DNA from: Candidatus Omnitrophota bacterium
GTDB taxonomy: Bacteria > Omnitrophota > Gorgyraeia > Zapsychrales > JAHFFX01
NCBI GenBank assembly: GCA_023247755.1
Contig: JAHFFX010000001.1
Location: 1 to 56,510, forward strand
Direction of reading: 5' to 3'
DNA length: 56,510 nucleotides
Position 1 is the first letter of the stretch, and each line of letters starts with the position of its first letter. Positions 36,743 through 56,071 of this stretch are shown here, piece by piece. The notes beneath the pieces were generated by a model, which worked only from the letters and a program-made list of their open reading frames with translations, had not been told where the DNA came from and ran no database searches. The position numbers and the translations under genes are program-made.

Positions 36743-37159
36743 TTATTGAACCGCGCCAAAGTTGTCCGTGCCTCCCCGGGTGACCGCGGATCCGTCAAAG
36801 TTGAGCCACATTGTACTGAACCCATCCCCACCGTTGATGGTGTTACGGGTCGCGGTGATCGTGTATGCTATGTCCGCGGAGTCGATCAAGTAGGTGAAAT
36901 GGCTGCCGGGCGTGAGGCTCGGGTCTTCCACGTCCAAGGTGGTAAAGTCGGAACAGGGCCCGGTGAAGCTGACCCGCATGAGGTAACAGCGTTCCATGGA
37001 TTGGCGGATGGTGGCGATCGCGTACATCGCTTCCACCCCCCGAGCGTATTCTATCGTGCTGAAAAAACGGGGCATGGCGAGGCTCGCCAGTACGCCAATG
37101 ATGATGATGACAATCATCACTTCCAAAAGCGTGAAGCCTTTGTGATTGGTTGATCTCAT
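36743..37159 (-). CDS. type IV pilin / pseudopilin, major-pilin paralog 2
   Basis: 138 aa with the prepilin signal MRSTNHKG|FTLLEVMIVIIIIGVLASLAMP (Gly-1, Phe+1, Glu+5). It matches the pilin at 39760-40176 at 99/138 positions in a gapless by-eye alignment. Confidence 0.9.
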   Translation of the reverse strand: MRSTNHKGFTLLEVMIVIIIIGVLASLAMPRFFSTIEYARGVEAMYAIATIRQSMERCYLMRVSFTGPCSDFTTLDVEDPSLTPGSHFTYLIDSADIAYTITATRNTINGGDGFSTMWLNFDGSAVTRGGTDNFGAVQ

Positions 37160-37250
37160 TCCCCTTATCCATGTCAGAAAAAGTAAATTCTCTAGGTTGT
37201 CTGGGTTTCGGACGCTGCTGCAGGAATGGAAAATACTCCATTCTAATTAA

Positions 37251-37278
37251 ATTATAGTCGACCGGGGGGCATTTGCAA
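37251..37278 (-). promoter_or_regulatory. sigma70-type promoter of pilin paralog 2 (TTGCAA-16 nt-TATAAT)
   Basis: Minus strand TCTTTTGCAAA..16 nt..TATAATTTAATT. The same extended hexamer contexts recur upstream of pilin paralog 1 (40297-40324), while the spacer sequence differs. Confidence 0.55.
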
Positions 37279-37530
37279 AAGATTATTGAGAAATCATAAC
37301 CTAAATTGTTGCATGCGGTTGTGTGTCAAATGCTGATCCGCTCCCTTCTCTGGAAAGAATAATGGATTTGATCCGCCGGCTTTGGCAAACGGGTCGGAAA
37401 GAGGATGTTGGGAAGGTCTTCCTTGGAGGTGGATCCGGGAAAAGCGGAATTTTCCTCCTGGCGGGGAGAAGTCGGTTTGGCGAAGATCATGATCGGCTCT
37501 TTGATCTTCGGGATTTACCTGAAAGGGAAA

Positions 37531-37604
37531 TGGACCGAGGGGGGATCGAACCCCCGACCTCCTGCTTGCGGAGCAGGCGCTCTCCCAAACTGAGCTATCG
37601 GCCC
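37531..37604 (-). tRNA. tRNA-Ala (CGC) with G3:U70 and an unusual C at position 33
   Basis: Minus strand GGGCCGA TA GCTC AGTTTGGGA GAGC G CCTGC TCCGCAA GCAGG AGGTC GGGGG TTCGATC CCCCC TCGGTCC A folds into a 74-nt cloverleaf. The G3:U70 Ala identity pair is present. The anticodon loop reads U32-C33-C34-G35-C36-A37-A38. CCA is not encoded. Confidence 0.9.
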
Positions 37605-37718
37605 AAAGTATCAGAAAATATTCTAGGAATGTGGGAGTACTGAGGTGCTTATGAATGGGGTGTATAGTAGCAAATCTTTGGCGGGTTGACAAGCTTGCTT
37701 ATTCTTATGTGCGAAGAA

Positions 37719-38342
37719 CTACGGGATGATCCAGGAATGATAGCCGGGGTAAACACGGGTCTCGACATAATATTCCGGATTATTGAACGGGTCCAGCGCA
37801 TTACCAGGGATATAGCGATTACGCAAGGCGATACTGACGTAAAAAATTTGCGTGGAGGGATCGATTGGGATGGTTACGTTTATAGAGGTCGACCCTCCCA
37901 AATATCGGTCGGTGGCCAAGCATTCGCCGAAGCCTGCCCTAATACAAGTGTACAGGCTATTGTTAATGGCAACTCTTCTGTAGCAGACCCAGTTGTCATC
38001 GGAGAAGTCCGTCGGGGTATTGTTATTCACTCCTGAGGAATTTATGTCCCGCCGGACGCACAGGTCGAGGAGGGGGGCATAACAAGGATGGGAGGTCGGG
38101 ACCTGGCTGGAACGAATGCCGGGGTTGGAAAATGTTCCGGTGGCCATCGAGACGTTCTTTACGATATCGAGCATCATGGCCCCGGTCTGCATGGCCACGA
38201 GCCCGGAGCGGGTCGTCGTTTGCTGGCTTTGCTTGGTGGCGAAATCGACGGAAGCGATCCCCAGCATGATGAGGCCAACGAGAATGACCGAGACCATCAG
38301 TTCCGTCAAGGTCATTCCCCGGGATGAACGCGCTCCTATCAT
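37719..38342 (-). CDS. minor (pseudo)pilin, PilW/GspJ-like
   Basis: 207 aa with the prepilin-type N-terminus MIGARSSRG|MTLTELMVSVILVGLIMLGIASV. Confidence 0.75.
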   Translation of the reverse strand: MIGARSSRGMTLTELMVSVILVGLIMLGIASVDFATKQSQQTTTRSGLVAMQTGAMMLDIVKNVSMATGTFSNPGIRSSQVPTSHPCYAPLLDLCVRRDINSSGVNNNTPTDFSDDNWVCYRRVAINNSLYTCIRAGFGECLATDRYLGGSTSINVTIPIDPSTQIFYVSIALRNRYIPGNALDPFNNPEYYVETRVYPGYHSWIIP

Positions 38343-38752
38343 GGCTCGGTCCAGTTAACGGTGAGGTCAGCTTGCCAAAGATTGGTTCCCGACACTTGGG
38401 TTACGACATAAGCGGAAGTATAGGCTGTGCCATTGATCGTGGTGGTCCCTAGACTATGCGTTCCCACGGCCAGATCGGATCCACCATTCCAGGTGCTGGT
38501 CGCTGAAACCCAATTTCGGCCGTCGACCTTGGTGCGCAGATCGTCCAGGATCTGCCGTCCATAATAGGCCGCGGTCAGTTTTCGTTCCGAGACCATGGAA
38601 GGGCTTCGAATGGCGGCGATGGAAGCGAAAACACCAACGGCGGCGATGGCGAAGATGACGGAGGAAACCAGTACTTCTACGATCGTGAACGCGGACTGGT
38701 CGTTTCGTTTGCCGCAGGGATTCATCAAGGGTCCCCCGGGGATATCAGACAT
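38339..38752 (-). CDS. minor (pseudo)pilin, PilV/GspI-like
   Basis: Start refined to MSDIPGG (ATG at 38752, 7 nt after the upstream stop). The N-terminus is ..KRNDQSA|FTIVEVLVSSVIFAIAAVGVF, with Ala rather than Gly at position -1. Confidence 0.7.
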   Translation of the reverse strand: MSDIPGGPLMNPCGKRNDQSAFTIVEVLVSSVIFAIAAVGVFASIAAIRSPSMVSERKLTAAYYGRQILDDLRTKVDGRNWVSATSTWNGGSDLAVGTHSLGTTTINGTAYTSAYVVTQVSGTNLWQADLTVNWTEP

Positions 38753-38759
38753 AATGGGT

Positions 38760-39170
38760 TTAAGGGCATGTTCCGGCGCAGGACGGGTTCCCTCCCCCGG
38801 TGTTGATGACCGCATTGGTGACCGTCACGGTGAAGGTGGTTGCCGGCCCCCAGCGGACCGCCGTTACGGTAAAGGCCGCTGCGGTAGCGCCGGTAGAGGT
38901 GTAGGTCATGCCATTTTCGATGATGTTCAATGCCAGATTGGTGTTGATCGCGGCGGCATCTCCGGTCCCCCAGAAGGTTCCGTACGTGGAGCGGTAGATC
39001 TGTTGTGCGCCGTGAAGCGCGATCAAATTGGCTTCCGCGGTACGCCGGTAGGACCGCTCCACGGTTTTTTGGTAATTGGGAATGGCAAATCCAGCGATGA
39101 CGGCGATGATGATGACCACGATCATGAGCTCTAGGACCGTGAAAGCGGATTGGGATCTTATTTTTGACAT
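38760..39170 (-). CDS. pilin / GspG-like pseudopilin
   Basis: 136 aa with MSKIRSQSA|FTVLELMIVVIIIAVIAGFAIPNYQ (Ala at -1) and a C-terminal Cys pair, CAGTC. Confidence 0.8.
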   Translation of the reverse strand: MSKIRSQSAFTVLELMIVVIIIAVIAGFAIPNYQKTVERSYRRTAEANLIALHGAQQIYRSTYGTFWGTGDAAAINTNLALNIIENGMTYTSTGATAAAFTVTAVRWGPATTFTVTVTNAVINTGGGNPSCAGTCP

Positions 39171-39174
39171 GGTA

Positions 39175-39744
39175 TCAGTATCCGATCTTTCCGCATATGC
39201 CTCCTGCCCCTCCGGAGCAGGTTACCGTGCCGCCACGCTGGATGACCAGCGTATAAGTTCCATAGGGACCGCCGGCGGACCTCGTGATGGAAGCGGCCGT
39301 ATCCGTTGGGTTAACAGCGGCCGCAACGGTCGGAGCATCAAAATTGGGGGAAGCGGGTACGGTTAGGTCCAAATTGGCAAGGCTGTTAGTGAAGGCGCTT
39401 GCGTTCTCCAAAGCGTAACGATTTTGGGCGCCGAGAAGTGCGGTCAATATCCCCACCCCTTCTCTTGACCTTACGGTTTCCACTGTGGACTGATATCGGG
39501 GAATGGCAAGTGCCGCAAGCGCGCCGATGATGATGATGACAATTATGGTCTCTATCAAGGTGAATCCTTGATGCCGTTTGCGGTCAATGGAATTTTTCTT
39601 GATCAAACTTAGAAAATGTGAGTTACGGGAGTAAGGAAGGGTTCCGAAGGGGTGGCGAGCGTCAAATGTTATTTTAAGTTTTGAGATTTTCATGGTTGCG
39701 AAAAAGCGGGTCAGGCCGTTAGGCCTGACCCGCTTCTGGTTCAA
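39175..39744 (-). CDS. pilin-like protein (start uncertain)
   Basis: ..RKRHQG|FTLIETIIVIIIIGALAALAIPRYQ with a C-terminal CSGGAGGIC loop. The ORF-track start gives an implausibly long leader. An in-frame TTG (LIKKNSIDRKRHQG|F) would give a typical 13-aa leader. Confidence 0.75.
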   Translation of the reverse strand: MNQKRVRPNGLTRFFATMKISKLKITFDARHPFGTLPYSRNSHFLSLIKKNSIDRKRHQGFTLIETIIVIIIIGALAALAIPRYQSTVETVRSREGVGILTALLGAQNRYALENASAFTNSLANLDLTVPASPNFDAPTVAAAVNPTDTAASITRSAGGPYGTYTLVIQRGGTVTCSGGAGGICGKIGY

Positions 39745-39759
39745 ACTAACTTATCCAAC

Positions 39760-40176
39760 TTATTGCACGGCACCGAATGGACCTGTACCGCCTCTGGTAA
39801 CCACGGTACCGCTGAACATGAGCCACACCGTACCAGTACCTCCACCGCCGTCACGTGTGTTACGGGTCGCGGTGATCGTGTAAGCCGTCGCCGCGGACGT
39901 GATCGCGTAGTTGAAGTGGCTGTTGGGCGTGGTATTAGGGTCTTCCACGTCCAAGCTGGCGAAGACGGCACACGGGCCGGTGTAACTGACTCTCATAAGG
40001 TAGCACCGTTCCATCGATTGGCGAACGGTGGCGATGGCTTGCATCGCTTCCGTGGCCCTGGAATACTCTACCGTGCTGAAGAAGCGCGGCAGCGCCAAGC
40101 TGGCCAGAACACCGACAATGATGATAACGATGATGACTTCCAACAAAGTAAAACCACTACGGTTCTTAAGATTCAT
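39760..40176 (-). CDS. type IV pilin / pseudopilin, major-pilin paralog 1
   Basis: 138 aa with MNLKNRSG|FTLLEVIIVIIIVGVLASLALP and a Cys pair (ERCY..GPC). It is the first pilin gene after pilC. Confidence 0.9.
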   Translation of the reverse strand: MNLKNRSGFTLLEVIIVIIIVGVLASLALPRFFSTVEYSRATEAMQAIATVRQSMERCYLMRVSYTGPCAVFASLDVEDPNTTPNSHFNYAITSAATAYTITATRNTRDGGGGTGTVWLMFSGTVVTRGGTGPFGAVQ

Positions 40177-43482: not shown

Positions 43483-45009
43483 CTAATTTTCCAAGATCAA
43501 AAGGGCTTTATCAATCTCTTGTTTCCGGCGTGCGGGGATCTCCTGCTCTCGGGACAGCGGTTGATAGGGCTCTTTGGTTTTCAAGGCACTTTCAACATTC
43601 TCCTCCGCAAGTATATGCGGCGTGATAAAGATTATCAATTCCCGTTCCACTTCACTTTCATCGTTGTGCCGGAAAGCCCGGCCCAGAACGGGGATGTCAC
43701 CCAAGAACGGCACTTTGTTGATGATGGTGGTTTTATCGCTGCGCACAAGTCCGCCCAGGATGATCGTATCCCCATTGTTGACTTTTAAAATGGATTGGGT
43801 TCCCCGTTCTTCCGGATCCTTGAAGGTCTGTCCCTGGAAGGTGGCACCTTGCCTGGCTTGGATGACCCGGGGTGCGATCGCCATGGTGATCTCCCCGGTC
43901 AAGAGATTGGCTTGCGGGGTGACGGTCAGGAAAACGCCCGTTTCGACGCGTTCCGCTTCCACGGTCGTTGTTCCCGTGGACCCTCCGGTGCTGGTGGCTT
44001 CCTGGGTAACCCCGATGGCTTCATTGGTGGAAATCTTTATCTCGGCCGTTTCGTTGTTGAGGGTCAGTATCCTTGGTCGGGCGAGATTCTTGGTCTTGCT
44101 GTCCGTTTCCAAGAATTGCAAGGTCATCTCGAGACCGGAGGCATTGATGGTGCCAACGGTGTACGCTGGATCATCCGCCAGTCCTTTGTCGAGCAGCTGG
44201 TTCTGATTCCAGGGATAAAGGTGCTCTCTTTGCGCTCCTGTAAAGGTCAATGGCGTTGCCCCGAACTTTACCCCGATCAGGTCCGCAAGATTCTTGGAGA
44301 CGTCCAGCATCTCGACCTCGATCAGGATCTGGGGGATGGGAACGTCAAGTTTCGCCAGGGTCTGTTCGATCAACGGGAACTGGCTGGGGTTGTCGGTGAT
44401 GATCAGGCTGTTGGTCCGGGGGTCCTCAACGATGCTGGCCCCGGTCGTCATGACGGTCCGGAGGGCGGCGACCAGACCAATTGTGGTAGAAGTCCCTCCT
44501 GAGGAAGAAGCCGCGCCAGCTCCGCCCCCTCCCGCTTCGATCGTAAGGGTCTTGGTGATCTTGGAGGAACCAACGGATGCGTGTTTCAACCGGTATATGC
44601 GGGTGATCGTATTCTTTACGGGTCGGTCGAGCGTTTTGACGATAAAAATTCCGCTTCCCGAATCCAGTTCATAACCCAAACCATGAGCGGTGAGGATCCT
44701 TTCCAGCGCCTCCTCTACCGGGACGTCTTTTAAGAACAAGGTGATTCTTTTGTTGGCCACCTCTTGGGAACCGATGAAATTCAACCCCGACTGTTGCGAA
44801 AGGATTTTTAAAACATCGATCAGATTGGCATCCTTGAAATCCATGGAGATCTTTTGCGAGAATTCGGGATAGATGAAATGGTCAGCGGTATCGGTTTCGC
44901 TCGAATTCTCCGCTGCCATGGGCGGAGCGCCGCTCCAGCTTGCAAGCGCCCAGATGATTCCGAGCGATATTAGAAAGATCTTTGATCTACTCATGGGTTT
45001 TCCCCTCAT
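43483..45009 (-). CDS. pilQ: secretin (GspD/PilQ family)
   Basis: 508 aa with a signal peptide, an N0/STN-like domain (DFKDANLIDVLKILSQQSGLNFI) and a C-terminal secretin domain (VNNGDTIILGGLVRSDKTTIINKVPFLGDIPVLGRAFR). Confidence 0.93.
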   Translation of the reverse strand: MRGKPMSRSKIFLISLGIIWALASWSGAPPMAAENSSETDTADHFIYPEFSQKISMDFKDANLIDVLKILSQQSGLNFIGSQEVANKRITLFLKDVPVEEALERILTAHGLGYELDSGSGIFIVKTLDRPVKNTITRIYRLKHASVGSSKITKTLTIEAGGGGAGAASSSGGTSTTIGLVAALRTVMTTGASIVEDPRTNSLIITDNPSQFPLIEQTLAKLDVPIPQILIEVEMLDVSKNLADLIGVKFGATPLTFTGAQREHLYPWNQNQLLDKGLADDPAYTVGTINASGLEMTLQFLETDSKTKNLARPRILTLNNETAEIKISTNEAIGVTQEATSTGGSTGTTTVEAERVETGVFLTVTPQANLLTGEITMAIAPRVIQARQGATFQGQTFKDPEERGTQSILKVNNGDTIILGGLVRSDKTTIINKVPFLGDIPVLGRAFRHNDESEVERELIIFITPHILAEENVESALKTKEPYQPLSREQEIPARRKQEIDKALLILEN

Positions 45010-45015
45010 GGCTGG

Positions 45016-45678
45016 TTATTTGTACAGGACCTTAAACCTTTTTCCTTGGAATAGAACTTCGATGCCGAATTCATTGATATCCATAATCTCCGCGTTGTCC
45101 ACGGTGTCACCGATGCCCACCACTTTGTTGTTGATGATCGCTTGCGGTGTTGGGGAATCCCAGATGATTCCGTTGATGGTGAATGTCGGAACCCGGATCT
45201 CCACAGGCTTGACTTCCTTCTTGGGAGGCGGTGCCTCCTTTTCTTCCGGGATCTTCCCCTCCGTTTGGTTCACCGGTGGCGGCGGTGGCGGTGGCGGTGG
45301 CGGAGGTGGGGGTGCGACCGGTGATGGTAATTGTTCGATAAAAGGATTCCTCAATGCCTTGATGTCCTGGTCGGATATGTGCATGTCCTCATCGGCCGCT
45401 TGATCGGATTTCAATTCAGCTTGTTGATCCGTTTTCGGCTCGACCTGCTTACCGGAGCTCAGGTCGTCTTTCTTATCGTTCTTATCGGGCTCTTGGGTGT
45501 TTCCCTTGTCCTGCTTATCGGGTTGTATTCCCTTATCGCTCTTGCCGGATTTCCGGTCGGTTTCCTTGTCAGGATTTAAATTGGTTTCCTGGTTGGTCAC
45601 CGCTGCCTGGGTGAAAGTTTGTCCGAAAGCGATCAGGCTTCCCGCACAGATGAAGAGAAAAAGGACTCGGATGGTCAT
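45016..45678 (-). CDS. PilP/GspC-like secretin-interacting protein with Lys/Asp/Gln-rich region and 13-residue polyproline tract
   Basis: 220 aa with a signal peptide, a low-complexity middle, PPPPPPPPPPPPP, and a C-terminal beta domain TFTINGIIWDSPTPQAIINNKVVGIGDTVDNAEIMDINEFGIEVLFQGKRFKVL that resembles the PilP / GspC-HR pattern. Confidence 0.55.
   Translation of the reverse strand: MTIRVLFLFICAGSLIAFGQTFTQAAVTNQETNLNPDKETDRKSGKSDKGIQPDKQDKGNTQEPDKNDKKDDLSSGKQVEPKTDQQAELKSDQAADEDMHISDQDIKALRNPFIEQLPSPVAPPPPPPPPPPPPPVNQTEGKIPEEKEAPPPKKEVKPVEIRVPTFTINGIIWDSPTPQAIINNKVVGIGDTVDNAEIMDINEFGIEVLFQGKRFKVLYK
45275..45313. repeat. in-frame GGTGGC-type microsatellite encoding the polyproline tract
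   Basis: ggtggcggcggtggcggtggcggtggcggaggtgggggt on the plus strand (CCN codons on the minus strand). Confidence 0.8.
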
Positions 45679-46280
45679 TCTTTGGAATATTTCACTAGGT
45701 CGATATCGATCTGGGCCGAGACGGATTCCTTATCCTCCTCGGCGGAAGCGGCTTCACCGCTGTTGGTCGTTTGCGCCTTCGCGGCGCTGGTCCACCGGTC
45801 CACCCTGAGGTTCTCCGAGCTCTCTTCGATGCTCCGGATGAAAGTCACCATATCCTGGTAATTATTGGCCGTCACGTTCAGGCTTAGAATGGTTAGTGTA
45901 TGGAATTTCTTTTTGATCTCCTTGGGCGGCGAGAAATTGGAGATCTGAATGCTGTGCTCGCCGGCCAATTCCGTCACCCGGCCCATCAGGTCATCCGTTG
46001 GAAGCCCTGGGGGAAGATCGGCCAGGAACTGCGAATACTCCTTTTGAAGATCATCATGGGCTTTGATGCGGGCGACCTTTTTTCCCAATTCTTGGATCTT
46101 TTCCTGAACCTTCTTTTCTTCCAGAAGTCCGCCGGCAACAACTTTGATCAGGATGAAAAATGAAATACCGGTGATGATGAGTTGGATCAGAAGGTCGGGC
46201 TTTTGCAGAAGATTTTCCTGGATCTTCGCAAGGTCGATGTCTTTAATATTAATTTTGCTGAGATCTGAGATTTTCATCAC
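45675..46280 (-). CDS. pilO: PilO/GspM-like bitopic pilus alignment protein
   Basis: 201 aa with a short cytoplasmic N-terminus, one TM (LLIQLIITGISFFILIKVVAGGL), a coiled coil and a ferredoxin-like C-terminal region. The position between pilMN and the pilP-like gene supports the call. Confidence 0.6.
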   Translation of the reverse strand: MMKISDLSKINIKDIDLAKIQENLLQKPDLLIQLIITGISFFILIKVVAGGLLEEKKVQEKIQELGKKVARIKAHDDLQKEYSQFLADLPPGLPTDDLMGRVTELAGEHSIQISNFSPPKEIKKKFHTLTILSLNVTANNYQDMVTFIRSIEESSENLRVDRWTSAAKAQTTNSGEAASAEEDKESVSAQIDIDLVKYSKE

Positions 46281-46282
46281 GA

Positions 46283-47857
46283 TTATTCGCAGTCGATCTT
46301 AAAAGCCGTCACCTGATAATTTTCCATGGGTTGAGCATTGGCGGAGAGTTCAACCTTGTGGAAATTCTTCGCAAAGAAAGGGTCGGTTTTTAACTTCACT
46401 TTGTAGTTATTGAGGAGGCGTAGCTGTTGATTAGGGTTGCTGTCGTAAGCATAGCCGGTGAAATTCAAGGTAATCCGATAGGTCATTTTTTGTTGGTCAG
46501 CTTCCGATTCGGCCGGGAGTCCCCATAAGAAGTTGAGCTCGGCTTTGGTGATATCCACATATTGGACCTGCAGATTGCTGAGCCAAACCCCCGGGGGAAG
46601 AGTTTTCGGAATCTTGGTAAGCAGGAAAGTCATGTGGCTGGTGGTGCGGATGGTTTTATAATCGTCCAGTCTGTCCTGAACAGATTTGATCTTCTCTTCG
46701 ATCTGCTCAACGGGAAGATCTTTGAAAATCCCTCCCTGTTCGGTAAGCTTTTGCAATTTGCTTTTTGAACCGCCGATCAATAAGTTGCTTCCGACGAAAG
46801 CCATGATCAATAGCCCTGCGCAGACGCCGGCGGTCTTGGCTATCGCGAGGATATTTTCTTTTGACAGCTTGAATTGGAACTCGGATTTTGACGTTTTGCT
46901 CACCGGTTGCGTCAAAAAGTCAAACTTTATCGCGAGCGGCACCGAATCCCGCAGGCTCACGCCGAAGGCGTTGAGCAGATCGATGGAGACGACCTCCGGC
47001 AAGTTAAGGGTCTCTTTGACTCCAACGGAAGTCGCGGGGATCCCCAGATCATTGCCGATATTTTGGGCCATTTCGGCGGATTCGGTCTCTGACACGGTGA
47101 TGATGCTGGTGACCTTTTCTTGATTGTATTGGCGGCCGTAATAATCCAGCGAGATGCGGATTTCGTTGAAAAGGCGGGCGTTGGCAATCTCCGGATCGGC
47201 GTCCTCTTTGGTCTGGTTCGCCGGGGACAACTTGAAGTCCCGGATGAACTGGGGCATCCCGTGATCGACGATGGTGATTTTTCCTTCCTTCTGGTTAGTT
47301 TCCACAACGGCGATTTTCTGGTCCAGGGGAAGTTTGTTCTTGAAGATGAGAACCCGCACCAAACTTAAGGACGACGGCTCGATGAAGGTGACCTTTAGGC
47401 CGGCTTGTCCAAGGACGTTGCAGTATTTATACAGGATGTCGTTGCGGGCCGCGACGAAGAGCACGCGGATCTTGCGGATGGCCTTTTCGTTAAACGTTAC
47501 CGGATGAAATGTATAAGCAACCTCCTCCAGTTTGAAGGGGATATATTTTCTCGCTTCGAATTCGACCACGTTCTTGACCTCGCTGGCATGCACCCAGGGG
47601 ATCACAAAGGAACGGAATATGATGTCCTTGGCGGGGATCGCCAGACTGGCATCGCCGGGCAGTATCTTTTGTTCACGCAGGTTCTTTTGGATCAGGGCGG
47701 TGATGCGGATCTCCTCGGGAACGTCTTTGCTCGCAGCGCTGGGCTGCGGTTCGAAGAGACTGTGGGGGGCGGAAAAATACTTGGCCGGAGTTTGATTTTC
47801 CGACTCCACGATGGAGAAGATTTGATTGCCGAAATGGACTCCCAGCCTTTTAGTCAT
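46283..47857 (-). CDS. PilM (actin-like ATPase fold) - PilN fusion protein
   Basis: Start refined to MTKRLGVHFGN (ATG at 47857). An ~330-aa PilM-like cytoplasmic domain is followed by a single TM (ILAIAKTAGVCAGLLIMAFVGSNLLIGG) and a ~170-aa PilN/GspL-periplasmic-like domain. Confidence 0.7.
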   Translation of the reverse strand: MTKRLGVHFGNQIFSIVESENQTPAKYFSAPHSLFEPQPSAASKDVPEEIRITALIQKNLREQKILPGDASLAIPAKDIIFRSFVIPWVHASEVKNVVEFEARKYIPFKLEEVAYTFHPVTFNEKAIRKIRVLFVAARNDILYKYCNVLGQAGLKVTFIEPSSLSLVRVLIFKNKLPLDQKIAVVETNQKEGKITIVDHGMPQFIRDFKLSPANQTKEDADPEIANARLFNEIRISLDYYGRQYNQEKVTSIITVSETESAEMAQNIGNDLGIPATSVGVKETLNLPEVVSIDLLNAFGVSLRDSVPLAIKFDFLTQPVSKTSKSEFQFKLSKENILAIAKTAGVCAGLLIMAFVGSNLLIGGSKSKLQKLTEQGGIFKDLPVEQIEEKIKSVQDRLDDYKTIRTTSHMTFLLTKIPKTLPPGVWLSNLQVQYVDITKAELNFLWGLPAESEADQQKMTYRITLNFTGYAYDSNPNQQLRLLNNYKVKLKTDPFFAKNFHKVELSANAQPMENYQVTAFKIDCE

Positions 47858-48038
47858 GATTTTGCGAAGAGGTTCGGGTTTGCGACCGAAGCCAGCGGTC
47901 GATCTCTTTTTTGTCAAAACGCCAGACGCCGCCGATCTTCATGCCCGTTATCTTATTGTCGCTGAGCCAGTTATAAATCGTCTGCTTTTTAAGCTTAAGA
48001 TAGCGGGCCAATTCCCCAACGTCCATGAGATGACGCAT
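47850..48038 (-). CDS. small stand-alone HTH_17 (excisionase/AlpA-like) DNA-binding protein heading the pilus operon
   Basis: 62 aa from MRHLMDVGELARYLKLKKQTIYNWLSDNKITGMKIGGVWRFDKKEIDRWL. There is an 8-nt overlap with pilMN. Confidence 0.65.
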   Translation of the reverse strand: MRHLMDVGELARYLKLKKQTIYNWLSDNKITGMKIGGVWRFDKKEIDRWLRSQTRTSSQNHD

Positions 48039-48080
48039 AGGCACCTGTGGCGAGATTAACAAAATAATATTATTAATCTC

Positions 48081-48109
48081 ATTAGACTATAACGCTTTTA
48101 CTTTGTCAA
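48081..48109 (-). promoter_or_regulatory. candidate promoter of the HTH-pil operon (TTGACA-17 nt-TCTAAT)
   Basis: Minus strand TTGACA (48109-48104), a 17-nt spacer, then TCTAAT (48086-48081), ~45 nt upstream of the HTH ATG. Confidence 0.4.
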
Positions 48110-48127: not shown

Positions 48128-48157
48128 TGCGGGAAAATGCGGGAAATTGGGGAAAAT
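48128..48157. repeat. three tandem 10-nt repeats (TGCGGGAAAA TGCGGGAAAT TGGGGAAAAT) just upstream of the candidate pil promoter
   Basis: The exact 10-nt period was seen directly. The array lies ~20-50 nt upstream of the -35 hexamer on the transcribed side. Confidence 0.6.
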
Positions 48158-48498
48158 CAATAATTGGAGGAAGTTGAAATGATGGGCAGGGTTCCGCTAA
48201 GGCCGCTGCCGGCCGTTCCGTAGCCGGCAGTTATAGTGTAATCCTTTCCGTCAAGACTCAGGGGGTAAGTGCCGCCTCCGAAGGTGATTCCTCTGTATGC
48301 CAGGTCGAAATAGTAAAGATTTATGGCGGTCTGCCACTGTTCATTCTTGATGCGGTCGATCTGGCGTTGGCCGATGGTGATCTGGCTGACGTTGGTGCTC
48401 ACGATGCCGATGACGAAGATCATCATGATCGCGGTGACGGACAGGACCGTCAGCAGGATGATTCCTTGTTTGTTCTTGGCGGAGCGTTCAGTGCTCAC
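48157..48498 (-). CDS. PilX/GspK-like minor pseudopilin-like protein (no Glu+5)
   Basis: Start refined to GTG at 48498, forming a GTGA overlap with the upstream stop. The product is VSTERSAKNKQGIILLTVLSVTAIMMIFVIGIVSTNV..., with the hydrophobic N-terminal helix typical of PilX_N/GspK, then a small Gly/Thr-rich beta domain. Confidence 0.5.
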   Translation of the reverse strand: MSTERSAKNKQGIILLTVLSVTAIMMIFVIGIVSTNVSQITIGQRQIDRIKNEQWQTAINLYYFDLAYRGITFGGGTYPLSLDGKDYTITAGYGTAGSGLSGTLPIISTSSNY

Positions 48499-48740
48499 GG
48501 TTTCCGGCCCTCTCCCGGGTTGACGGACAGATAACTTTGACAACGCGGACATACCTTCAAATGAGATCTCTGGTAGTCGAAAAACAGGTGCGTGCAATAA
48601 GGACATTGCTCCAAGAATTCGGAGCGCTCAAAGATCTCTTTGTCCCCGTTAGAATTATAAAATATCCATTTTCCAATAACAAGCGCGAGCCCAAAAAAGA
48701 TATAGCTGGAAACGGCCCAGGCCGCATCGACGGAGATCAT
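48495..48740 (-). CDS. small membrane protein with cytoplasmic CxxC-x14-CxxC zinc ribbon
   Basis: 81 aa with the TM segment AWAVSSYIFFGLALVIGKWIF followed by CPYC...(14 aa)...CPRC. There are 4-nt overlaps with both neighbours. Confidence 0.55.
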   Translation of the reverse strand: MISVDAAWAVSSYIFFGLALVIGKWIFYNSNGDKEIFERSEFLEQCPYCTHLFFDYQRSHLKVCPRCQSYLSVNPGEGRKP

Positions 48741-49156
48741 TGGGTCGTCCTCAGGGGGATGTATTCCGGGGCCGCTTCGGGGGAGTTTTGGGGGCTGGCG
48801 GGGGACTCTTCGGATCCCGTCCCGTTTTCTTCCGCTTCGGGGGAAGCGGTCTTGAGATAGGTCTTTTCATCTCGAAATTCCGGGCGTTTTTGAGCGGCCG
48901 GTTTATCCAAGCGACCCGGCTGTTGGAACGCCGCGGGGGTTTTGTCAAGTGAACGGTCTTCTCCCCGGAATTTGTCGCGCGTCCCTCCCCCATGCTCCTG
49001 AAAATCGACGTCTTGCCGCTGCAGGATGGAACCGAGAAAGGTGAAGGCCGGTCGCCGCGGCTCGCTCCGGGGCCGGAAAGTGAAGATGAAGACCGATCCG
49101 GCAAGCAGGTGGAACACGATCGAGAACAGCAGCGTATTGGTGAAATGCGGTTTCAT
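48737..49156 (-). CDS. TonB/TolA-like energy-transducer stub (N-terminal anchor + Pro/Glu/Arg-rich linker, no recognisable C-terminal domain)
   Basis: 139 aa. The N-terminal TM segment TLLFSIVFHLLAGSVFIF contains the SxxxH motif of TonB/TolA anchors. The remainder is low complexity. It sits immediately after the ExbB/ExbD-type genes. Confidence 0.5.
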   Translation of the reverse strand: MKPHFTNTLLFSIVFHLLAGSVFIFTFRPRSEPRRPAFTFLGSILQRQDVDFQEHGGGTRDKFRGEDRSLDKTPAAFQQPGRLDKPAAQKRPEFRDEKTYLKTASPEAEENGTGSEESPASPQNSPEAAPEYIPLRTTQ

Positions 49157-49170
49157 CAGGGGTGCCGGGG

Positions 49171-49575
49171 TTATTGCTCTTCGTTAGTGGCGATGTTGAT
49201 GCGCTCTATGCCGAGTTCACGGCAAAGATTCCAGACCTCAACGATCCGGCCCACGGAAGATCGCCGGTCCGCCTTGATCAGCAGCAGACGATTCTTGGAA
49301 GTGAGTTTGGCCAGTTCCCTGCGAAGTTCCTGCGAGGTCAGGATCTGGTTGTTGAAGGACAGCACATCTTCGCCGGAAATGATGACGACGATGCTTTCTT
49401 CCTTGATGATGTCGCTGGTGATCGTGCGGGGCAATTTGACGTTGATGCCTGCCTGGACCGCAAAGGCGGACGTCAGCATGAAGAATATGAGCAGTTGAAA
49501 AACGACATCTACCCAGGGGACGATGTCGATCGGTCCCAGCCCGTATTCCATGGGGGCTCGGCGTTCAAATCTCAA
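49171..49575 (-). CDS. ExbD/TolR-family biopolymer transport protein
   Basis: 134 aa with IDIVPWVDVVFQLLIFFMLTSAF (the conserved Asp-containing TM) followed by a periplasmic domain. Confidence 0.88.
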   Translation of the reverse strand: MRFERRAPMEYGLGPIDIVPWVDVVFQLLIFFMLTSAFAVQAGINVKLPRTITSDIIKEESIVVIISGEDVLSFNNQILTSQELRRELAKLTSKNRLLLIKADRRSSVGRIVEVWNLCRELGIERINIATNEEQ

Positions 49576-50254
49576 GCGAAGGTTCCCCTCTTTTGATCTT
49601 TTTAGCGTAATCGGTCTGGGATAACTGCGTTAAAAAATTGACCATCTCGGTCGCGGCCCGTTCCATCTCCAGAACTATGCCGTTGGTGCGGCTCACGCAA
49701 TAATTGTAGGCCAGGTAGGCGGGGATCGCGACCAGCAGTCCGGCCACGGTGGTGATCAGCGCCTCCCAGATCCCGCCGGCAAGATCGATCGGGCTTATCG
49801 GATTCAGGGCGGTGGCTTTCACCTGAATGGTGTGAAAACTTTCGGCAAGGCCAATGACCGTTCCCAGGAGGCCAAGCAAAGGAGCGATATGCGCGATTGT
49901 CGAAAGGATTCCCAGACGCTGTTCCATTCTCGGAATTTCGTAAAGACTGACGCTTTCCATGGCTTCTTTGATCTCTTCGGCGGTCGTTCCGGATTGCAGG
50001 ATCGCCGCTTTCAATATCTTGGCGACCGGCGAAGCATGGTCTTCACAGCGTTTTACGGCCTCTTTGGTCCGGTTGTCCTTCAGGTCGTTGAAAATGTCGG
50101 ATTTCAACTGGTTCAGGTTGCCCTTCAACGTCGAGAGATACCAGAGTTTTTCGACCATGACGGCCACGGCGAACAAGGAGCACAACAAGATCGGCGCCAT
50201 GAGTGGCCCCCCTGCTTTGATCAACTCCCAGCCGTTCATTCCCCACGCACCCAT
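49565..50254 (-). CDS. MotA/TolQ/ExbB-family proton channel
   Basis: Start refined to MGAWGMNGWELIKAGGPLM (ATG at 50254, AAAGGAGAACCT upstream). It has three TM segments and the conserved C-terminal region IAPLLGLLGTVIGL..GGIWEALITTVAGLLVAIPA. Confidence 0.9.
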   Translation of the reverse strand: MGAWGMNGWELIKAGGPLMAPILLCSLFAVAVMVEKLWYLSTLKGNLNQLKSDIFNDLKDNRTKEAVKRCEDHASPVAKILKAAILQSGTTAEEIKEAMESVSLYEIPRMEQRLGILSTIAHIAPLLGLLGTVIGLAESFHTIQVKATALNPISPIDLAGGIWEALITTVAGLLVAIPAYLAYNYCVSRTNGIVLEMERAATEMVNFLTQLSQTDYAKKIKRGEPSLEI

Positions 50255-50282
50255 AGGTTCTCCTTTAACTCCTGATGAAGTT

Positions 50283-52814
50283 TTATTGAATGCCGATGTT
50301 GGATTGGATCCAGTCGAGACGTTCCTGGGCGAATTTGACCTCATCGGTGCCCAGTGCGATGACCTTCTGGTAAATCGTTTTGGCGTTCGCCCAATCTTCC
50401 TGATTCTCGAAGATGCGGCCCACGCGTAAATAGGCCTTGGTCACCCAGTAGGTCTCTTTGGGATAGAGGTAAGGGATCTTCAGATAAGCCTCCACGGATT
50501 CGTTGGTCTTGTTCATGAGCTCATAAACGTCCCCGGTCTTGAATTGCAGTTCGGCATTGGTGATCTCGCTGAGGCCCAATTCGGAATTCAGGGCCTGCTC
50601 GAGCGCCGCCCGCGCGTCCTCGAATTTCCGGTCGGTGATGTACGCCGCGGAGATCTTCAGATACGCGTCCCGCTTCATTTCCGGGCAATTGACGGCGATG
50701 GTCTTGTAGGTCTCGATGGCGGTGGTGAGGTCCAATTCCTTGGAAAAGATCTCGGCGATGGCGAGCTTGGCCTTGGCGTACAGTTCCTTGTCCTGCGGAT
50801 CGTCGATCACTTTGTATTCATTGATGGCCTTGTCGAAAAATCCCTGTACCTGATAGGCCTGCCCCAATTTGTAATGCGCGAGGGAAAGCTGTTTGTTGTT
50901 GGGGAAGTTCGCGATGACCTGCTGATAGAAGTCGATGGCGCTCTCGAACTCGGAATTCTCCAAATAATAATCCCCCAGCCACATCATGGCGTTGAGGGCG
51001 GTTTCCGTCTGCGGATATTTGTAGATGATGATCTTGAACTTCTTGACGGCCTCTTTTGCGTCACCGGTCTTGTACAGCGCCTTGGCGCTACCCAGCTCGC
51101 TTTGCTGGGTGAGCGTCGGGTCATCCGTGAAATCCCGGATGATCTTGTCGAACGTCTTGAGGGCCCCGGCGGAATCTTCCAGGTTATACTGGGAAAGCGC
51201 GAGGATGTAATGGGCCTCGGGGATGAGTTCAGGGCTCGAGGAAGTCTCTTTAAGGAAGCTTTCCACCTGCTCCTTGGTCCTGGCCCAATCGTTTTTCTTG
51301 AAATAGGCCACCCCCAGATAATACAAGCTGTCCGTCAGAAATTTGCTTTTGGGGAAATTGGCGCGCAAGGTCTGGAAGGAAAGGGTCGCGGCATCGATCT
51401 TGCCCATCTTCAGCAACGCGATCCCCTGTCGGTACTGGACGTAATCGCTGTAAAGACTGTCGGGATAATTCTGCAGGATCCGGTCGTAAACCTCCAGCGC
51501 TTTGTCCAGATTGCCGGCGTCCTGATAGGCGTCGCCGATCTGGGTCAAGGCCGAGACCTTGACGGTCTTGTTGTCGGTACGGTCCATGATCATCTCGAAG
51601 TTTTTGATGGCCGCATCGATCTGGCCGCTTTTGAGCTGGGCCCAGGCCAGGCCGAAATACGCCTTCTCGATCAATTCCTTCTGGTCCTCCTGCGCCGCGA
51701 AATTTTGCAGGAGCGTCGTGTAGGTGGCGATGGCGGCCGGGTAATCCTTCAGCATGTACTGCATATTGGCCTTCCCGAGATAGGCGTCGACCAGGCGCGG
51801 GCTTTTGGGAAAATTGTCGATGAGGGTGTTATAGGCCTCCAGGGCCTTCGCGTGGTCGCCCATCTCGGTATAAAGACTGGCCTCCCCCAGAAAAATATCG
51901 TCGGAAAGCATTTTTTTCTCGCCCGCCGTCGCTTTGGCGTCCGCAAAGGCCTGCTGGGCGTTGGGGTAATCGCCCTTTTTGAAGAAACTCCAGCCCATGC
52001 TCACCTTGGCCATGACGACCAGTTTGGGATCGAGGGAGATCTGCGAAGCCTTGCCGTAGTAGGTGATGGCTTCCGAGTAATTGGGTTGATAGTAATAGGA
52101 TTCGGCAATGTAAAAGAAGGCCTGATCCTGGCGGTTGGATTTGGGGTACTTGATGATATAGTCCTGGAACCGTTCGATGGCCTCGGCGTAGGAACGAAGA
52201 TTGTATTCGCATTCGCCGGCCTTGAAGTGCGCGTCCTCGGTCAACTGGTGCTCGGGGAATTTCTGGATGAGTTCCTTGAAGGTGTCGAGGGCCAGGAGGT
52301 ATTTTTTCTGCTCGAAGTAGGTCCAGGCGAGCGAGTAGAAGGACTGCGGCGTGTAAGGGGATTTCGGGAAGAGATTGATGACTTCCTTATAATACTGTTC
52401 CGCCTTGGCGAAATCGGAGCCCTTGAGGTACGTTTCCCCCAGCCAGAAGAGCGTCGCGTCCTTGAACTCCTGGGAATCGGTCAGCCCCTGGAAGATCTCG
52501 AACGCTTTGAGGTATTGGGTTTTGAAGAAATAACATTGACCTATGAGCAGCTTCGCCTGCGTCTTTTTTTCCGACTCCGGATATTTTTCCAGGAAATCGT
52601 TGATGTAACGGATGGCTACGTCGTAAAACCCGTCGTCGAAGGCCCGCTGGGCGATGACGAAGAGCTCTTTCTCCTGCTCTCCCGGCGCGGCGGCCGATTG
52701 AGCGCGAACCGCCGTTGGCGATAGGAACATCAGGGCGAGAAGGATGGGAAGCGATCGGTTGCGAAGGGTGATGAACATGAGGCCCATTATAACAGGTTTG
52801 GATTCATTTTCCAA
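50283..52814 (-). CDS. large secreted tetratricopeptide-repeat (TPR) protein
   Basis: 843 aa with a signal peptide ([16 protein letters not shown]), then uninterrupted TPR-like 34-aa units (many ..A...Y..G..Y....Y..A...F..... repeats; YbgF/CpoB- or PilF/PilW-like). Confidence 0.85.
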
Positions 52815-55644
52815 CGACGACGGCGGAAGCTTTCGTGGAATGTGCCGGTGCAGGGGCCTGCAGAAATTCTTTGAGATATTTACCGGTGTGGGAAGTCCGA
52901 TGGCGGATCAGGTCTTCCGGTGAACCGGTGAAGACCACCTCTCCTCCCCGGTCGCCGCCGTCCGGGCCCAGGTCCACCACGTAGTCGGCGGTCTTGACGA
53001 CCTCCAGGTTATGTTCGATGATAAGGACCGTGTTGCCTTTGTCCACCAGCCGCTGCAGGACCGCGAGAAGTTTATCGACATCGGCAAAATGGAGGCCCGT
53101 CGTCGGTTCATCCAGGATGTACAGGGTCTGGCCGGTCGAGGTCTTGCACAGTTCCGAGGCGAGCTTGACGCGTTGGGCCTCTCCTCCCGATAAGGTGGTC
53201 GCCGACTGGCCCAGCTTGATATAACCCAAGCCCACGTCGAGCAGGGTCTGCAGGGTGTTGTTGATGCGCGGGATGTTCTCGAAGACCGTGAGGGCCTGCG
53301 CCACCGACATGTTGAGGACCTCCGCGATGTTCTTTCCCTTGAAATGGACGTCGAGGGTCTGTTCGGTGAACCGCAGGCCATGGCAGATCTCGCACTCGAC
53401 ATAAACATCCGGCAGAAAATGCATTTCGATCTTGATGATGCCGTCGCCTTCGCAGGCTTCACAGCGTCCGCCTTTGACGTTGAAGCTGAAGCGGCCCGGC
53501 TTGTATCCGCGCATCTTGGCCTCGGGCGTTTGGCTGAAGAGGTCCCGGATGGGGCCGAAGACGCCGGTGTAGGTCGCGGGGTTGGAGCGCGGCGTGCGCC
53601 CGATCGGGCTTTGGTCGACCACGATCACTTTGTCGAGCTGTTCGATGCCTTCGATCTTTCGGTGTTCGCCGGGCCGGTCTTTGGCGTGATAGATCTTTTG
53701 GGCGAGGGCTTTATAGAGAATGTCATCGATGAGCGTGGATTTTCCCGATCCCGAGACCCCGGTCACGGTGATGAACGTTCCCAGAGGCAGTTCGACGTCG
53801 ATGCCTTTGAGATTATGCTGGCGGGCGCCGAAGATCCTTAGTTTCTTCGCGGCGGTGATGTTACGGCGCTGCCGCGGTGTGGGGATGGAGAGCTCTCCCC
53901 GCAGATATTGGCCGGTGAGGGAACTCTTTGATCTCAATAGCCCGGGGACGTCCCCGGCGTAGATCACCTCTCCCCCGTATTCCCCCGCGCCGGGGCCCAG
54001 ATCGATCACGAAGTCGGCGGCGCGGATGGTCGCCTCGTCGTGTTCCACCACGACCAGACTGTTGCCCAGGTCGCGCAGGGACTGCAGGGTCGCCAAGAGC
54101 CGTTCGTTGTCTTTCTGGTGCAGGCCGATGCTGGGTTCATCGAGGATGTAAATGACGCCGACCAGTCCCGACCCCACCTGGGTCGCCAGTCGGATGCGTT
54201 CCGCCTCCCCGCCGGAGAGCGTAGCGCTGCGGCGGTCGAGCGTCAGATACTCGAGGCCGACGTTAATGCAGAAATCCAGCCGGCGGATGATCTCCTTGAG
54301 GATAGGTTCGCTGATGGTCTTCTGGTCCCGGGAGAGCGGCAGCTCATGGAAGAACCGCCGGGCCTCTTTGATGTTCAGGGCGGCGGCCTGCGCGATGTTC
54401 TTCTCGGCGATCTTAACCGCCAGGGATTCTTTTCTGAGGCGGTCGCCCTGGCAGGCCGGGCAGGGCAGGACGGACATGAACTTGGAAAGCTCGTCCTTGA
54501 GCCATTCATTGTCCGTCTCGCGGAAAAGCCGTTCCAGGTACGCCAATACCCCTTCGAATTTCCTTCCCCAGACGATGTCCTCCGAGCCGTGGAGTATTAT
54601 TTTTTTGAATCGTTTATCGAGTTTATGGAAAGGGATGTTCTGGTCGACGTCGTATTCGTGCGCGATTTCCCGGAAGACCGCTTTGTAGTAGAACATGAAT
54701 CCCCGCCGTCCGTGCGTGTAAGGAACGATGGCTTGGACCCAGGGCTTGGTCGTATCCGGCACGATCAATTCCTGATCGATCTCCATTTTGGTGCCGAGGC
54801 CGTTGCAATCCGGGCAGGCGCCATAAGGCGAGTTGAAAGAAAAAATGCGGGGCTCGATCTCGGTGAGGCTCACGCCGCAATCGACGCAGGCGTAATTTTC
54901 GCTGAAGATCTTGTCCGCGGCCTTGCCGTTGAAGTCGACGATCAAAAGTCCTTTGCCGGTCTTGAGGGCCGTTTCCACCGAGTCGGTGAGCCGTTTTTTG
55001 ATGTCCGGTTTGATGGTGAGGCGGTCCACCACCACTTCGATGTGATGGACCTTGAACTTGTCGAGCGCAAGCGTCTCTCCGACCTCCTGGATTTTTCCGT
55101 TCACCCGGATGCGGGCGAAGCCGGCTTGGGCGACCTGTTTGGGGATCTGGCGGTATTCCCCTTTGCGGCCGCGCACCAGGGGCGCCAGAAGATTGATGGC
55201 GGTGCCGGCGGGAAGCCGCAGGATCTGCCCCACGATCTCGGGAGCCGTTTGGCGTTCGATCTTTTTCCCGCATTCCGGACAATGCGGTGTCCCGACCCGG
55301 GCGAACAAAAGTCTCAAGTAGTCATAGATCTCGGTCTGGGTCGCGACCGTCGAACGGGGATTGCGGCTGGTGGTCTTCTGTTCGATGGAGATCGTCGGGG
55401 AAAGGCCTTCGATCGATTCCACGTCCGGCTTTTGCAATTGTTCGAGGAATTGCCGGGCGTAGGCCGAGAGGCTTTCGACGTAGCGCCGTTGCCCTTCCGC
55501 GTAGATCGTGTCGAAGGCGAGCGAGGATTTTCCGGAGCCGCTGAGGCCGGTGACGACCACGAGCTGGTTGCGGGGGATCTTGAGGCTGATGTTCTTAAGA
55601 TTATGTTCCTTGGCCCCGCGGATAGTGATGAATTCGCTTTGCAT
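52804..55644 (-). CDS. uvrA: excinuclease ABC subunit A
   Basis: 946 aa with two ABC ATPase modules ([14 protein letters not shown]; [11 protein letters not shown]), zinc-finger Cys clusters and the LSGGE signature twice. Confidence 0.98.
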
Positions 55645-56048: not shown

Positions 56049-56071
56049 GTGTTTCTCCTCCTCTTGTTGGG

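Follow-up and report, generated by a model that had tools for sequence, protein, structure and literature searches.

We analysed a 56,510-nt stretch of DNA (hereafter the window: contig JAHFFX010000001.1 of assembly GCA_023247755.1, positions 1 to 56,510 of the forward strand) from the uncultured bacterial phylum Omnitrophota. Open reading frames (ORFs) on its minus strand define a module of six genes, encoding a Ton/Tol-type motor and accessory proteins, that lies in front of a type IVa pilus (pil) operon; this arrangement recurs across the phylum. Judged by profile comparisons, the protein at the TonB position, here called the stub, is a TonB that has lost its receptor-binding C-terminal domain (CTD). 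We tentatively read the module as an accessory of the pilus. The six genes, in order of translation, are as follows.

50283..52787, minus strand: secreted tetratricopeptide repeat (TPR) protein, 834 aa, first gene of the module (TPR_6, TIGR02795, signal peptide)
49565..50254, minus strand: ExbB/TolQ-type proton-channel subunit, 229 aa (MotA_ExbB)
49171..49575, minus strand: ExbD/TolR-type subunit, 134 aa, TTG start (ExbD domain)
48737..49156, minus strand: the stub, a CTD-less TonB homologue by hhalign to full-length TonB, 139 aa
48495..48740, minus strand: ZnR, a membrane zinc-ribbon protein, 81 aa (transmembrane [TM] helix and CPYC-x14-CPRC)
48157..48498, minus strand: pilin-like protein of GspK/PilX type, 113 aa (N terminus; PilX_N matches in its family)

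An earlier model-made reading of the same letters (the first-pass annotation) had assigned these proteins to families, and Pfam and NCBIfam searches bear the assignments out, with the proviso that the PilX/GspK-like match comes from relatives of the last protein and not from the window copy. Several of its gene starts have been revised. The TPR protein, given as 843 aa, more likely begins at ATG 52787 (834 aa; relatives range from 827 to 849 aa) and ExbB at ATG 50254 (229 aa instead of 259 aa), both starts being taken from gene calls, and the last gene begins at GTG 48498 (113 aa) instead of 48606. The TTG start of ExbD at 49575 is supported by its RFKR N terminus, which is conserved and agrees with the relatives. 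The TPR gene starts 16 nt past the stop codon of uvrA, the ExbB and ExbD genes overlap by 11 nt, and the stub gene directly follows exbB-exbD with a spacing of 14 nt, a position that is kept in all related loci. Four-nucleotide overlaps had been proposed for the last three junctions; they are found between the stub and ZnR genes (ATGA) and between the ZnR and pilin-like genes (GTGA), not between the ExbD and stub genes. The gap from the pilin-like gene to the helix-turn-helix (HTH) gene that opens the pil operon, put at about 95 nt, measures 94 nt to a TTG codon and 118 nt to the conserved ATG at 48038.

No curated family in Pfam or NCBIfam covers the stub, ZnR or the pilin-like protein. The stub matches no model in either collection, TonB_C included, and carries the TonB/TolA-type anchor that had been noticed at first reading, S12-x3-H16, in its sole TM helix. 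Across the stub family the His is invariant and is preceded at position -4 by Ser or Ala (17/17 members), and conserved motifs run along the whole length of the protein (KPxFxFLGSILQxQD, KP, EKxxLK and a C-terminal PYxPLRL). An AF2 model shows a helix at residues 3-26 and no other fold, with none past residue 44, and the periplasmic arm is predicted to be disordered. Among 1.84 billion protein representatives, the family comprises 18 representatives, all of 112-157 aa except for a 455-aa repetitive protein that aligned over an 18-residue stretch only. The stub evolves under purifying selection (dN/dS 0.17-0.23, with dS saturated and the ratios only rough). Having no TonB_C, it has no known route to bind a TonB box.

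The relation of the stub to TonB became clear only after a metagenome scan with the ExbD alignment had added 80 loci and, with them, intermediate forms. A word-index search with the stub returned only the stub itself, and Foldseek and PDB sequence searches gave no significant match; a hidden Markov model of nine stub sequences did not match three outgroup TonBs, and hhalign against these three alone was weak (Prob 5%). In other lineages the stub position is occupied by proteins of 205-231 aa with a divergent CTD or by proteins of 215-238 aa. Several of the latter (e.g., in loci L059 and L076) match Pfam TonB_C weakly as single sequences; forms of 205-215 aa are not recognised by Pfam TonB_C as single sequences, and their CTD is linked through profile-profile comparison. 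The TonB of L008, a Ratteibacteria-like outgroup locus, matches TonB_C at 3.9e-12. In hhalign, the long forms align to each other over 195 columns (Prob 98.9, E = 2.3e-17), and the stub aligns both to the 205-231-aa form, through the TM helix and the FLGSIL region (Prob 97.7, E = 1.7e-12), and to the TonB_C-bearing forms (Prob 95.2, E = 2.5e-8); the stub comparisons were run in local mode, and the homology is limited to the first ~60 residues. In a global alignment the last motif of the stub falls on "LPYHFLLYF", the first element of the CTD. Together, these profile alignments identify the stub as a TonB that lost its receptor-binding CTD by evolutionary truncation. A second, independent truncation is seen in L064/L068/L070 when set against their relative L069 (224 aa), making at least two.

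Practically no weight can be given to the possibility that faulty assembly or a frameshift in one metagenome-assembled genome (MAG) produced the short TonB. Nothing was found in its favour, the identical stub protein occurs on independent assemblies, the 119-159-aa form is present in 23 distinct loci, no representative of the stub family is longer than 157 aa, and the overlap of the next gene with the stub stop codon is conserved. The first-pass annotation had allowed for a normal TonB cut short by such an error: the alignment to normal TonB is real, and the truncation is evolutionary.

The motor proteins are recognised readily at the domain level (MotA_ExbB, E = 3.6e-32; ExbD, E = 3.8e-23). 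Their best-scoring named NCBIfam models are TolQ and TolR, yet both scores lie far under the cut-offs (101.9 bits versus 221 for TolQ; 60.4 bits versus 127.3 for TolR), and the ExbB model scores 66.8 bits. The TM Asp that is essential in ExbD, TolR and MotB is kept in the window ExbD (VPWVDVVF), and by sequence the two proteins look like a working proton-driven stator. The TPR protein matches TPR_6 at E = 1.5e-78 and TIGR02795, the YbgF/CpoB TPR model, in 10 separate stretches that total 270.9 bits versus a cut-off of 90.1; it consists of about 10 YbgF/CpoB-like three-TPR units. Its signal peptide ends in AVRA before QS, and a lipobox Cys is absent. A pilotin of the PilF/PilW/Tgl type, as had been suggested for this protein, is a small TPR lipoprotein of ~250 aa with a lipobox Cys. 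We rejected this role because the TPR protein has no lipobox and scores far under the family cut-offs (65.4 versus 225 for Tgl; 27.8 versus 154 for PilW).

The motor proteins score higher with the TolQ and TolR models than with those of ExbB and ExbD, and for the TPR protein the best match is the YbgF/CpoB unit; this gives some support to a different reading, in which the module is an independent Tol/CpoB-type envelope system for peptidoglycan or outer-membrane (OM) homeostasis or cell division, and the adjacent pilus genes are inherited gene order without functional meaning. The wide shortfall of the TolQ and TolR scores tells against it. So does the absence of its partners: neither TolB nor Pal was found in the window or in the downstream regions read for four loci without pil genes (L059, L072, L086 and L088). 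Domain searches of the window proteins also upheld the earlier statement that no TolB, Pal or TonB-dependent receptor is encoded in the window, where no canonical tolB-pal or receptor set pairing with the module was met. We return to this reading below, with the gene-order evidence.

ZnR consists of a TM helix and the CxxC-x14-CxxC ribbon that had been described for this 81-aa protein; its four cysteines (C46/C49/C64/C67) are invariant. The ribbon is predicted to lie on the cytoplasmic side, from the excess of K/R after the TM helix, and it gave no match to anti-sigma zinc fingers in Pfam or NCBIfam. The ZnR family holds at least 203 clusters, and its gene always follows the TonB or stub gene, also in the Ratteibacteria-like loci with a full-length TonB. 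A DUF2582 winged-helix gene comes after ZnR in nearly all long-TonB loci and is missing from the short-stub lineage, the window included. The Ratteibacteria-like loci carry TPR-barrel (TonB_dep_Rec_b-barrel)-ExbB-ExbD-TonB-ZnR-DUF2582 and no pilus genes. The ancestral module was a larger one, TPR-(OM barrel)-ExbB-ExbD-TonB-ZnR-DUF2582, from which the window lineage lost the TonB CTD and DUF2582.

Two variants of the module were observed in passing. At L008 (6468-7979) and L014 (6541-7893), the outer-membrane protein between the TPR gene and exbB is 450-503 aa long; its match to the TonB-dependent-receptor barrel model is confined to the C-terminal half of that model, with no plug-domain match. 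In L062, L067 and L077 (also L061, L079 and L094), the TonB/stub and ZnR genes are absent and DUF2582 directly follows ExbD; in the first three, the pilin-like gene comes after DUF2582, with the HTH and pil genes next where the contig reaches (L062 and L077).

Step by step, different lineages have lost the barrel, the CTD and DUF2582, some loci TonB together with ZnR, and nine loci the ExbD Asp; these losses could also be those of a decaying relic, a classical TonB uptake system that lost its receptor barrel and CTD and has no specific function. We regard this as highly improbable. Six intact reading frames persist in dozens of divergent genomes with dN/dS values of 0.02-0.23, invariant residues and motifs are preserved throughout the stub, and ExbB is 52-62% identical across the phylum; moreover, in our view, a small streamlined genome would seldom retain 5 kb of genes that it does not need.

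The pilin-like protein begins with a basic leader and a Gly, after which a hydrophobic segment follows (KQG, then IILLTVL), and has no Glu at +5; this motif is found in all members of its family. Pfam PilX_N is matched by 12 of the 41 members (best E = 7.4e-8), and the window protein reaches E = 0.057 with the NCBIfam GspK model. The AF2 model (pLDDT 86.7) consists of a helix at residues 4-68 and a three-stranded sheet. The family comprises ~45 clusters, and every member with a named source is from Omnitrophota. Its dN/dS of 0.04 indicates strong constraint. The locus has seven pilin-like genes, and all but this one encode Glu5. In those short-stub loci that were read gene by gene, the pilin-like gene lies -17 to +39 nt from ZnR and is then separated by 94-270 nt from HTH or pilM. 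In P0155, a 132-kb ENA contig, ZnR and the pilin-like protein are fused in frame (189 aa), and in L086 (8215-8757) DUF2582 is fused to the pilin-like protein (180 aa). On these data the pilin-like gene groups with the Exb genes and not with the pil operon. As an observation on topology, both fusions place a cytoplasmic domain, a TM segment and a periplasmic head in series, like anti-sigma or ToxR-type proteins.

The order uvrA-TPR-ExbB-ExbD-stub-ZnR-pilin-like-(HTH)-pilMN-O-P-Q-B-C-pilins recurs in ~40 distinct loci with GC contents of 36%-55%, a recurrence that makes a chance arrangement untenable. In contigs that represent one genome per species, the closest ExbB relatives come from Omnitrophota MAGs, some of them labelled "Planctomycetales"; six of these keep the full order, with ExbB 52-62% and PilMN only 27-52% identical to the window proteins. 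Seven further loci, reached through the ZnR and pilin-like families, have the same order and also the same upstream genes (aminotransferase, HPPK, panC and the aspartate dehydrogenase gene). The arrangement is phylum-wide, and the linkage to pilM and secretin genes, which the first-pass annotation had proposed looking for in relatives, is conserved across many Omnitrophota. A short TonB stands next to pil genes in 23/23 loci and a long one in 13/20 (13 next to pil, 7 not; Fisher p = 0.0024, not corrected for phylogeny). We considered whether CTD loss coincided with arrival beside the pil genes, an idea ruled out by the 13 loci that have a full-length TonB next to pil. Full-text literature searches returned no description of this architecture, in line with the earlier impression that no characterised system has it, and an Omnitrophota survey that catalogues type IVa pili mentions neither TonB, ExbB nor this module (PMC10066038).

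The genes and elements that flank the module in the window are the following.

52804..55644, minus strand: uvrA, directly upstream of the TPR gene, its position equally conserved
48081..48109, minus strand: 29-nt invariant motif, recognised in the intergenic DNA of relatives
47850..48038, minus strand: HTH_17 (excisionase/MerR-like) DNA-binding protein, 62 aa, first gene of the pil operon (HTH_17, 9.7e-16)
46283..47917, minus strand: PilM-PilN fusion protein, 544 aa (PilM_2, 8.5e-16; TIGR01175, 3.8e-20)
45675..46280, minus strand: PilO-like protein, 201 aa (PilO, 9.8e-7)
45016..45678, minus strand: protein at the PilP position, 220 aa (T2SSB, 3.9e-4, under the Pfam cut-off)
43483..45009, minus strand: secretin (domain order STN [N0], Secretin_N, Secretin)
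41678-43414, minus strand: PilB ATPase (domain match)
40381-41649, minus strand: PilC platform protein (domain match)
36743..40176, minus strand: six pilin genes (canonical leader, G/A before F(M)T..E)

The 118-nt gap in front of the HTH gene contains the 29-nt motif TTGACAAAGTAA-N5-TTATAGTCTAAT, which is identical in L002, L003, L004 and L015/16; the flanking intergenic DNA is unalignable among the five divergent Omnitrophota loci that carry it. The motif is absent from loci without the HTH gene and had 0 matches in 100 shuffles. It includes a -35 element (TTGACA), a 17-nt spacer and TCTAAT, and is probably an autoregulated promoter/operator of the HTH-pil operon. A sigma-70 and terminator scan gave nothing above shuffle expectation and missed the motif because its -10 element is TCTAAT. 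Between the motif and the HTH start codon (48039-48080, minus strand), an 8-bp inverted repeat, GAGATTAA-N13-TTAATCTC, was read by eye. The HTH_17 gene is present in about half of the related loci.

In PADLOC, the HTH protein matches mad1 (E = 1.9e-10) and ExbB has a match of the generic ZorA/MotA kind. A Zorya-type defence system was rejected because the ExbB match is only marginal and generic and the mad1 match concerns the HTH protein, which lies outside the module. Within the pil operon, 12 consecutive prolines occur in the protein at the PilP position, which matches the GspB (T2SSB) C terminus weakly and PilP not at all. The six pilins are two ComP_DUS-type major-pilin paralogues and four minor pilins; the two paralogues, closely similar and 138 aa long (39760-40176 and 36743-37159, minus strand), bracket the minor-pilin genes.

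The invariant operator-like motif and the HTH gene directly downstream of the module bear on a trans-envelope signalling function. According to this idea, a Ton motor and membrane-anchored cytoplasmic domains (ZnR and, in relatives, DUF2582) would pass a signal from the periplasm or cell surface on to the expression of genes such as those of the HTH-pil operon, much as FecA-FecR-type TonB-dependent transducers or ToxR-like regulators do. The predicted cytoplasmic position of the zinc ribbon is consistent with it, as are the winged-helix DUF2582 gene that follows ZnR in nearly all long-TonB loci, the topology of the ZnR- and DUF2582-pilin-like fusions (cytoplasmic domain, TM segment, periplasmic head) and the STN domain of the secretin, a domain common to transducer receptors. 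Its support is topological, however: no sigma/anti-sigma pair is present, ZnR does not match the anti-sigma zinc fingers, DUF2582 is absent from the window lineage, and about half of the loci with the module have neither the HTH gene nor the motif. We judge a signalling role to be quite improbable.

We prefer, at a rough probability of 0.37, to read the module as a pilus accessory in the manner of PocAB-TonB3, a working link with the pilus being suggested rather than shown. The link is favoured by the conserved gene order, by the close packing and in-frame fusion of ZnR with the pilin-like protein, by the finding of short TonBs only beside pil genes, and by the STN/N0 domain that the secretin carries. 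PocA-PocB-TonB3 is needed for type IVa pilus assembly and localisation in P. aeruginosa, where contact between TonB3 and PilQ's N0 domain has been proposed (PMC5285504), and loss of A. baumannii TonB2 lowers transformation that depends on type IV pili (PMC8811193).

A possible mechanism follows from the parts that the stub has kept and lost. It should still dock on ExbB/ExbD, since it retains the S-x3-H anchor together with the ~60 N-terminal residues that it has in common with full-length TonB; because the CTD is absent, the motor would not be able to act on TonB-dependent receptors. Motor output would most likely reach partners in the periplasm by way of the disordered arm of the stub and the short conserved motifs that it bears. 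As the first candidate we name the CpoB-like TPR scaffold (834 aa) encoded in the same module, in parallel to the CpoB-TolA pair, in which CpoB binds TolA. The second is the pilin-like subunit, for which the inner-membrane platform of the adjacent type IVa pilus machine might provide a docking site. In this way the module could aid the assembly, envelope insertion or positioning of the pilus/secretin machine, and we infer that it may act mechanically on the pilus or secretin. A bolder version makes the ExbB/ExbD stator, driven by the proton-motive force (PMF), a physical part of the pilus machine: the CTD-less TonB, ZnR and the minimal pilin-like subunit would plug the stator into the platform, the TPR scaffold would connect it to the secretin, and assembly, secretin insertion or gating, or retraction would draw on PMF as well as ATP. 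This version we consider clearly unlikely.

Several observations weigh against a pilus function, beginning with gene order. Seven full-length-TonB relatives have only housekeeping genes and no pil genes downstream, and the module is older than its pilus neighbourhood. A block of ~20 kb, aminotransferase-HPPK-panC-AspDH-x-uvrA-module-pil, is conserved as a whole, and uvrA is packed against the TPR gene as tightly as the module genes are among themselves. Because the unrelated genes uvrA, panC, HPPK and the aspartate dehydrogenase gene are equally syntenic, adjacency is weak evidence for function, and the pil adjacency may be frozen synteny. The promoter-like motif marks a start of the pil operon separate from the Exb genes. 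L086 has no pil cluster, yet its pilin-like gene has remained with the Exb genes and is followed by rsmE (which in the window lies beyond the pilins), and the pil-adjacent loci L053, L064, L068 and L075 are without a detectable pilin-like gene.

The pilin-like protein and ExbD supply the remaining points of this kind. The window copy of the pilin-like protein misses PilX_N (not at E = 0.1), Foldseek with its model gave nothing significant (best E = 0.48, a pseudopilus chain coming only at rank 25), and a PDB profile search with the protein gave no match. That the protein occurs fused to cytoplasmic domains speaks against a pilin cleaved in the conventional way; a conventional short leader is unlikely in the fusion lineages because of their ZnR and DUF2582 fusions. 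The ExbD Asp is replaced in nine related loci, by Asn in L003, L004, L017, L034, L056, L068 and L070, by Ser in L066 and by Gly in L082, so that PMF coupling is not kept universally across the loci, and replacement is enriched with short TonB (7/26 versus 2/40, p = 0.023).

Much of the gene-order evidence also speaks for the independent Tol/CpoB-type envelope system: deeper relatives have the module without pil genes, uvrA, panC and HPPK are as syntenic as the module, and the pil operon has its own conserved promoter motif. Such a system leaves unexplained the pilin-like gene, the ZnR fusion and the loss of the CTD only beside pil genes, and the TonB_C domain and the TonB-dependent-receptor-type barrel of the outgroup point to Ton, not Tol, ancestry. 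We see it as a serious alternative, if a rather doubtful one, and keep the pilus accessory as our working interpretation.

The remainder of the window consists of housekeeping genes, and some of the ORFs around the locus deserve mention. Past the pilins and rsmE, a 608-aa protein (34153-35979, minus strand) combines PMT_2, a dolichyl-phosphate-mannose-type glycosyltransferase domain, with C-terminal TPRs and might glycosylate pilins or envelope components. A small, very basic ORF (55797-56165, minus strand) with no Pfam match separates uvrA from the aspartate dehydrogenase gene; in this ORF the pattern KKVAKVGVKK..GYLYF.DK.GD.SCAKM.RG.KK occurs twice by internal duplication; related loci have an unannotated gene of 79-156 aa at its position. 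At 5534-6061 (minus strand), a 175-aa protein joins a bactofilin domain to a C-terminal HTH_17 of the same type as that of the pil-operon regulator.

Type IVa pili are thought to be central to the attachment of Omnitrophota, which are ultra-small and host-dependent, to other cells and to predation on them (PMC10066038). If the module serves the pilus, genomic data from a distant phylum would back the PocAB-TonB3 phenotype seen and still unexplained in Pseudomonas, and the candidate connectors would be the TPR scaffold, the pilin-like protein and the zinc ribbon. Independently of the pilus, the loci form a natural TonB series that runs from a full CTD through a divergent one and a truncated protein to loci with no TonB at all, with some lineages also lacking the ExbD Asp; from it the part played by TonB's 60 N-terminal residues and linker alone could be learned. 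Two unannotated families, ZnR and the pilin-like proteins, are defined here. The outcome is a conserved and testable hypothesis in an uncultured phylum, resting on genomic evidence.

Compared with known systems, the module is nearest by descent to E. coli-type TonB-ExbB-ExbD. The two have in common the exbB-exbD-tonB order, the MotA_ExbB and ExbD domains and the TM Asp of ExbD, and like TonB the stub has one TM helix, which carries S-x3-H, and a periplasmic arm that is extended and unstructured; at the profile level it is homologous to full-length TonB. Unlike E. coli Ton, the window system has a stub without TonB_C and no TonB-dependent receptor, encodes three extra proteins alongside (the 834-aa TPR protein, ZnR and the pilin-like protein) and is fixed in front of a type IVa pilus operon. 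By sequence, then, it belongs to the TonB-ExbB-ExbD family by descent, yet it fails the defining functional feature, TonB_C.

The closest functional parallels are PocA-PocB-TonB3 of P. aeruginosa and TonB2 of A. baumannii, Ton paralogues that are tied to type IVa pili and not to nutrient uptake and whose mutants are unpiliated or mislocalise their pili (PMC5285504, PMC8811193). The pilus link is genetic for PocAB-TonB3 and only genomic here, and the resemblance is functional and genomic. TonB3 keeps its CTD, and the Poc genes are not known to share an operon with pilMNOPQ; to our knowledge, no zinc-ribbon, pilin-like or TPR partner has been described for PocAB-TonB3.

With Tol-Pal/CpoB the module shares TolQ and TolR as best models, CpoB-type TPR units and a short S-x3-H anchor as in TolA. 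Unlike Tol-Pal, the window has no TolB, no Pal and neither domain II nor domain III of TolA, and its scores are well under the equivalog cut-offs. CpoB (YbgF), a protein of ~260 aa, has an N-terminal coiled coil and one C-terminal TPR domain; the TPR protein of the window is ~3 times as long as CpoB and is encoded upstream, whereas CpoB is encoded downstream. The module is not Tol-Pal, because TolB and Pal are missing and the scores are sub-threshold.

The pilin-like protein resembles the minor (pseudo)pilins GspK and PilX in its basic leader ending in Gly, the lack of Glu5, the PilX_N matches of 12/41 relatives and a long helix with a small beta-sheet in the model. Its head has only ~45 residues, set against the ~300 aa of GspK, and unlike GspK/PilX it is encoded with the Exb genes, not with the six other pilins, and is fused to cytoplasmic domains in some lineages.

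Finally, the Ratteibacteria-like or deep Omnitrophota-like module has orthologous TPR, ExbB (47% identity), ExbD and ZnR proteins in the same order as the window. It keeps TonB_C, a TonB-dependent-receptor-type barrel (L008, L014) and DUF2582, which the window lacks, whereas the pilin-like gene and the downstream pilus operon are absent from it and present in the window. The window module is a lineage-specific, reduced member of a conserved TonB-type module.

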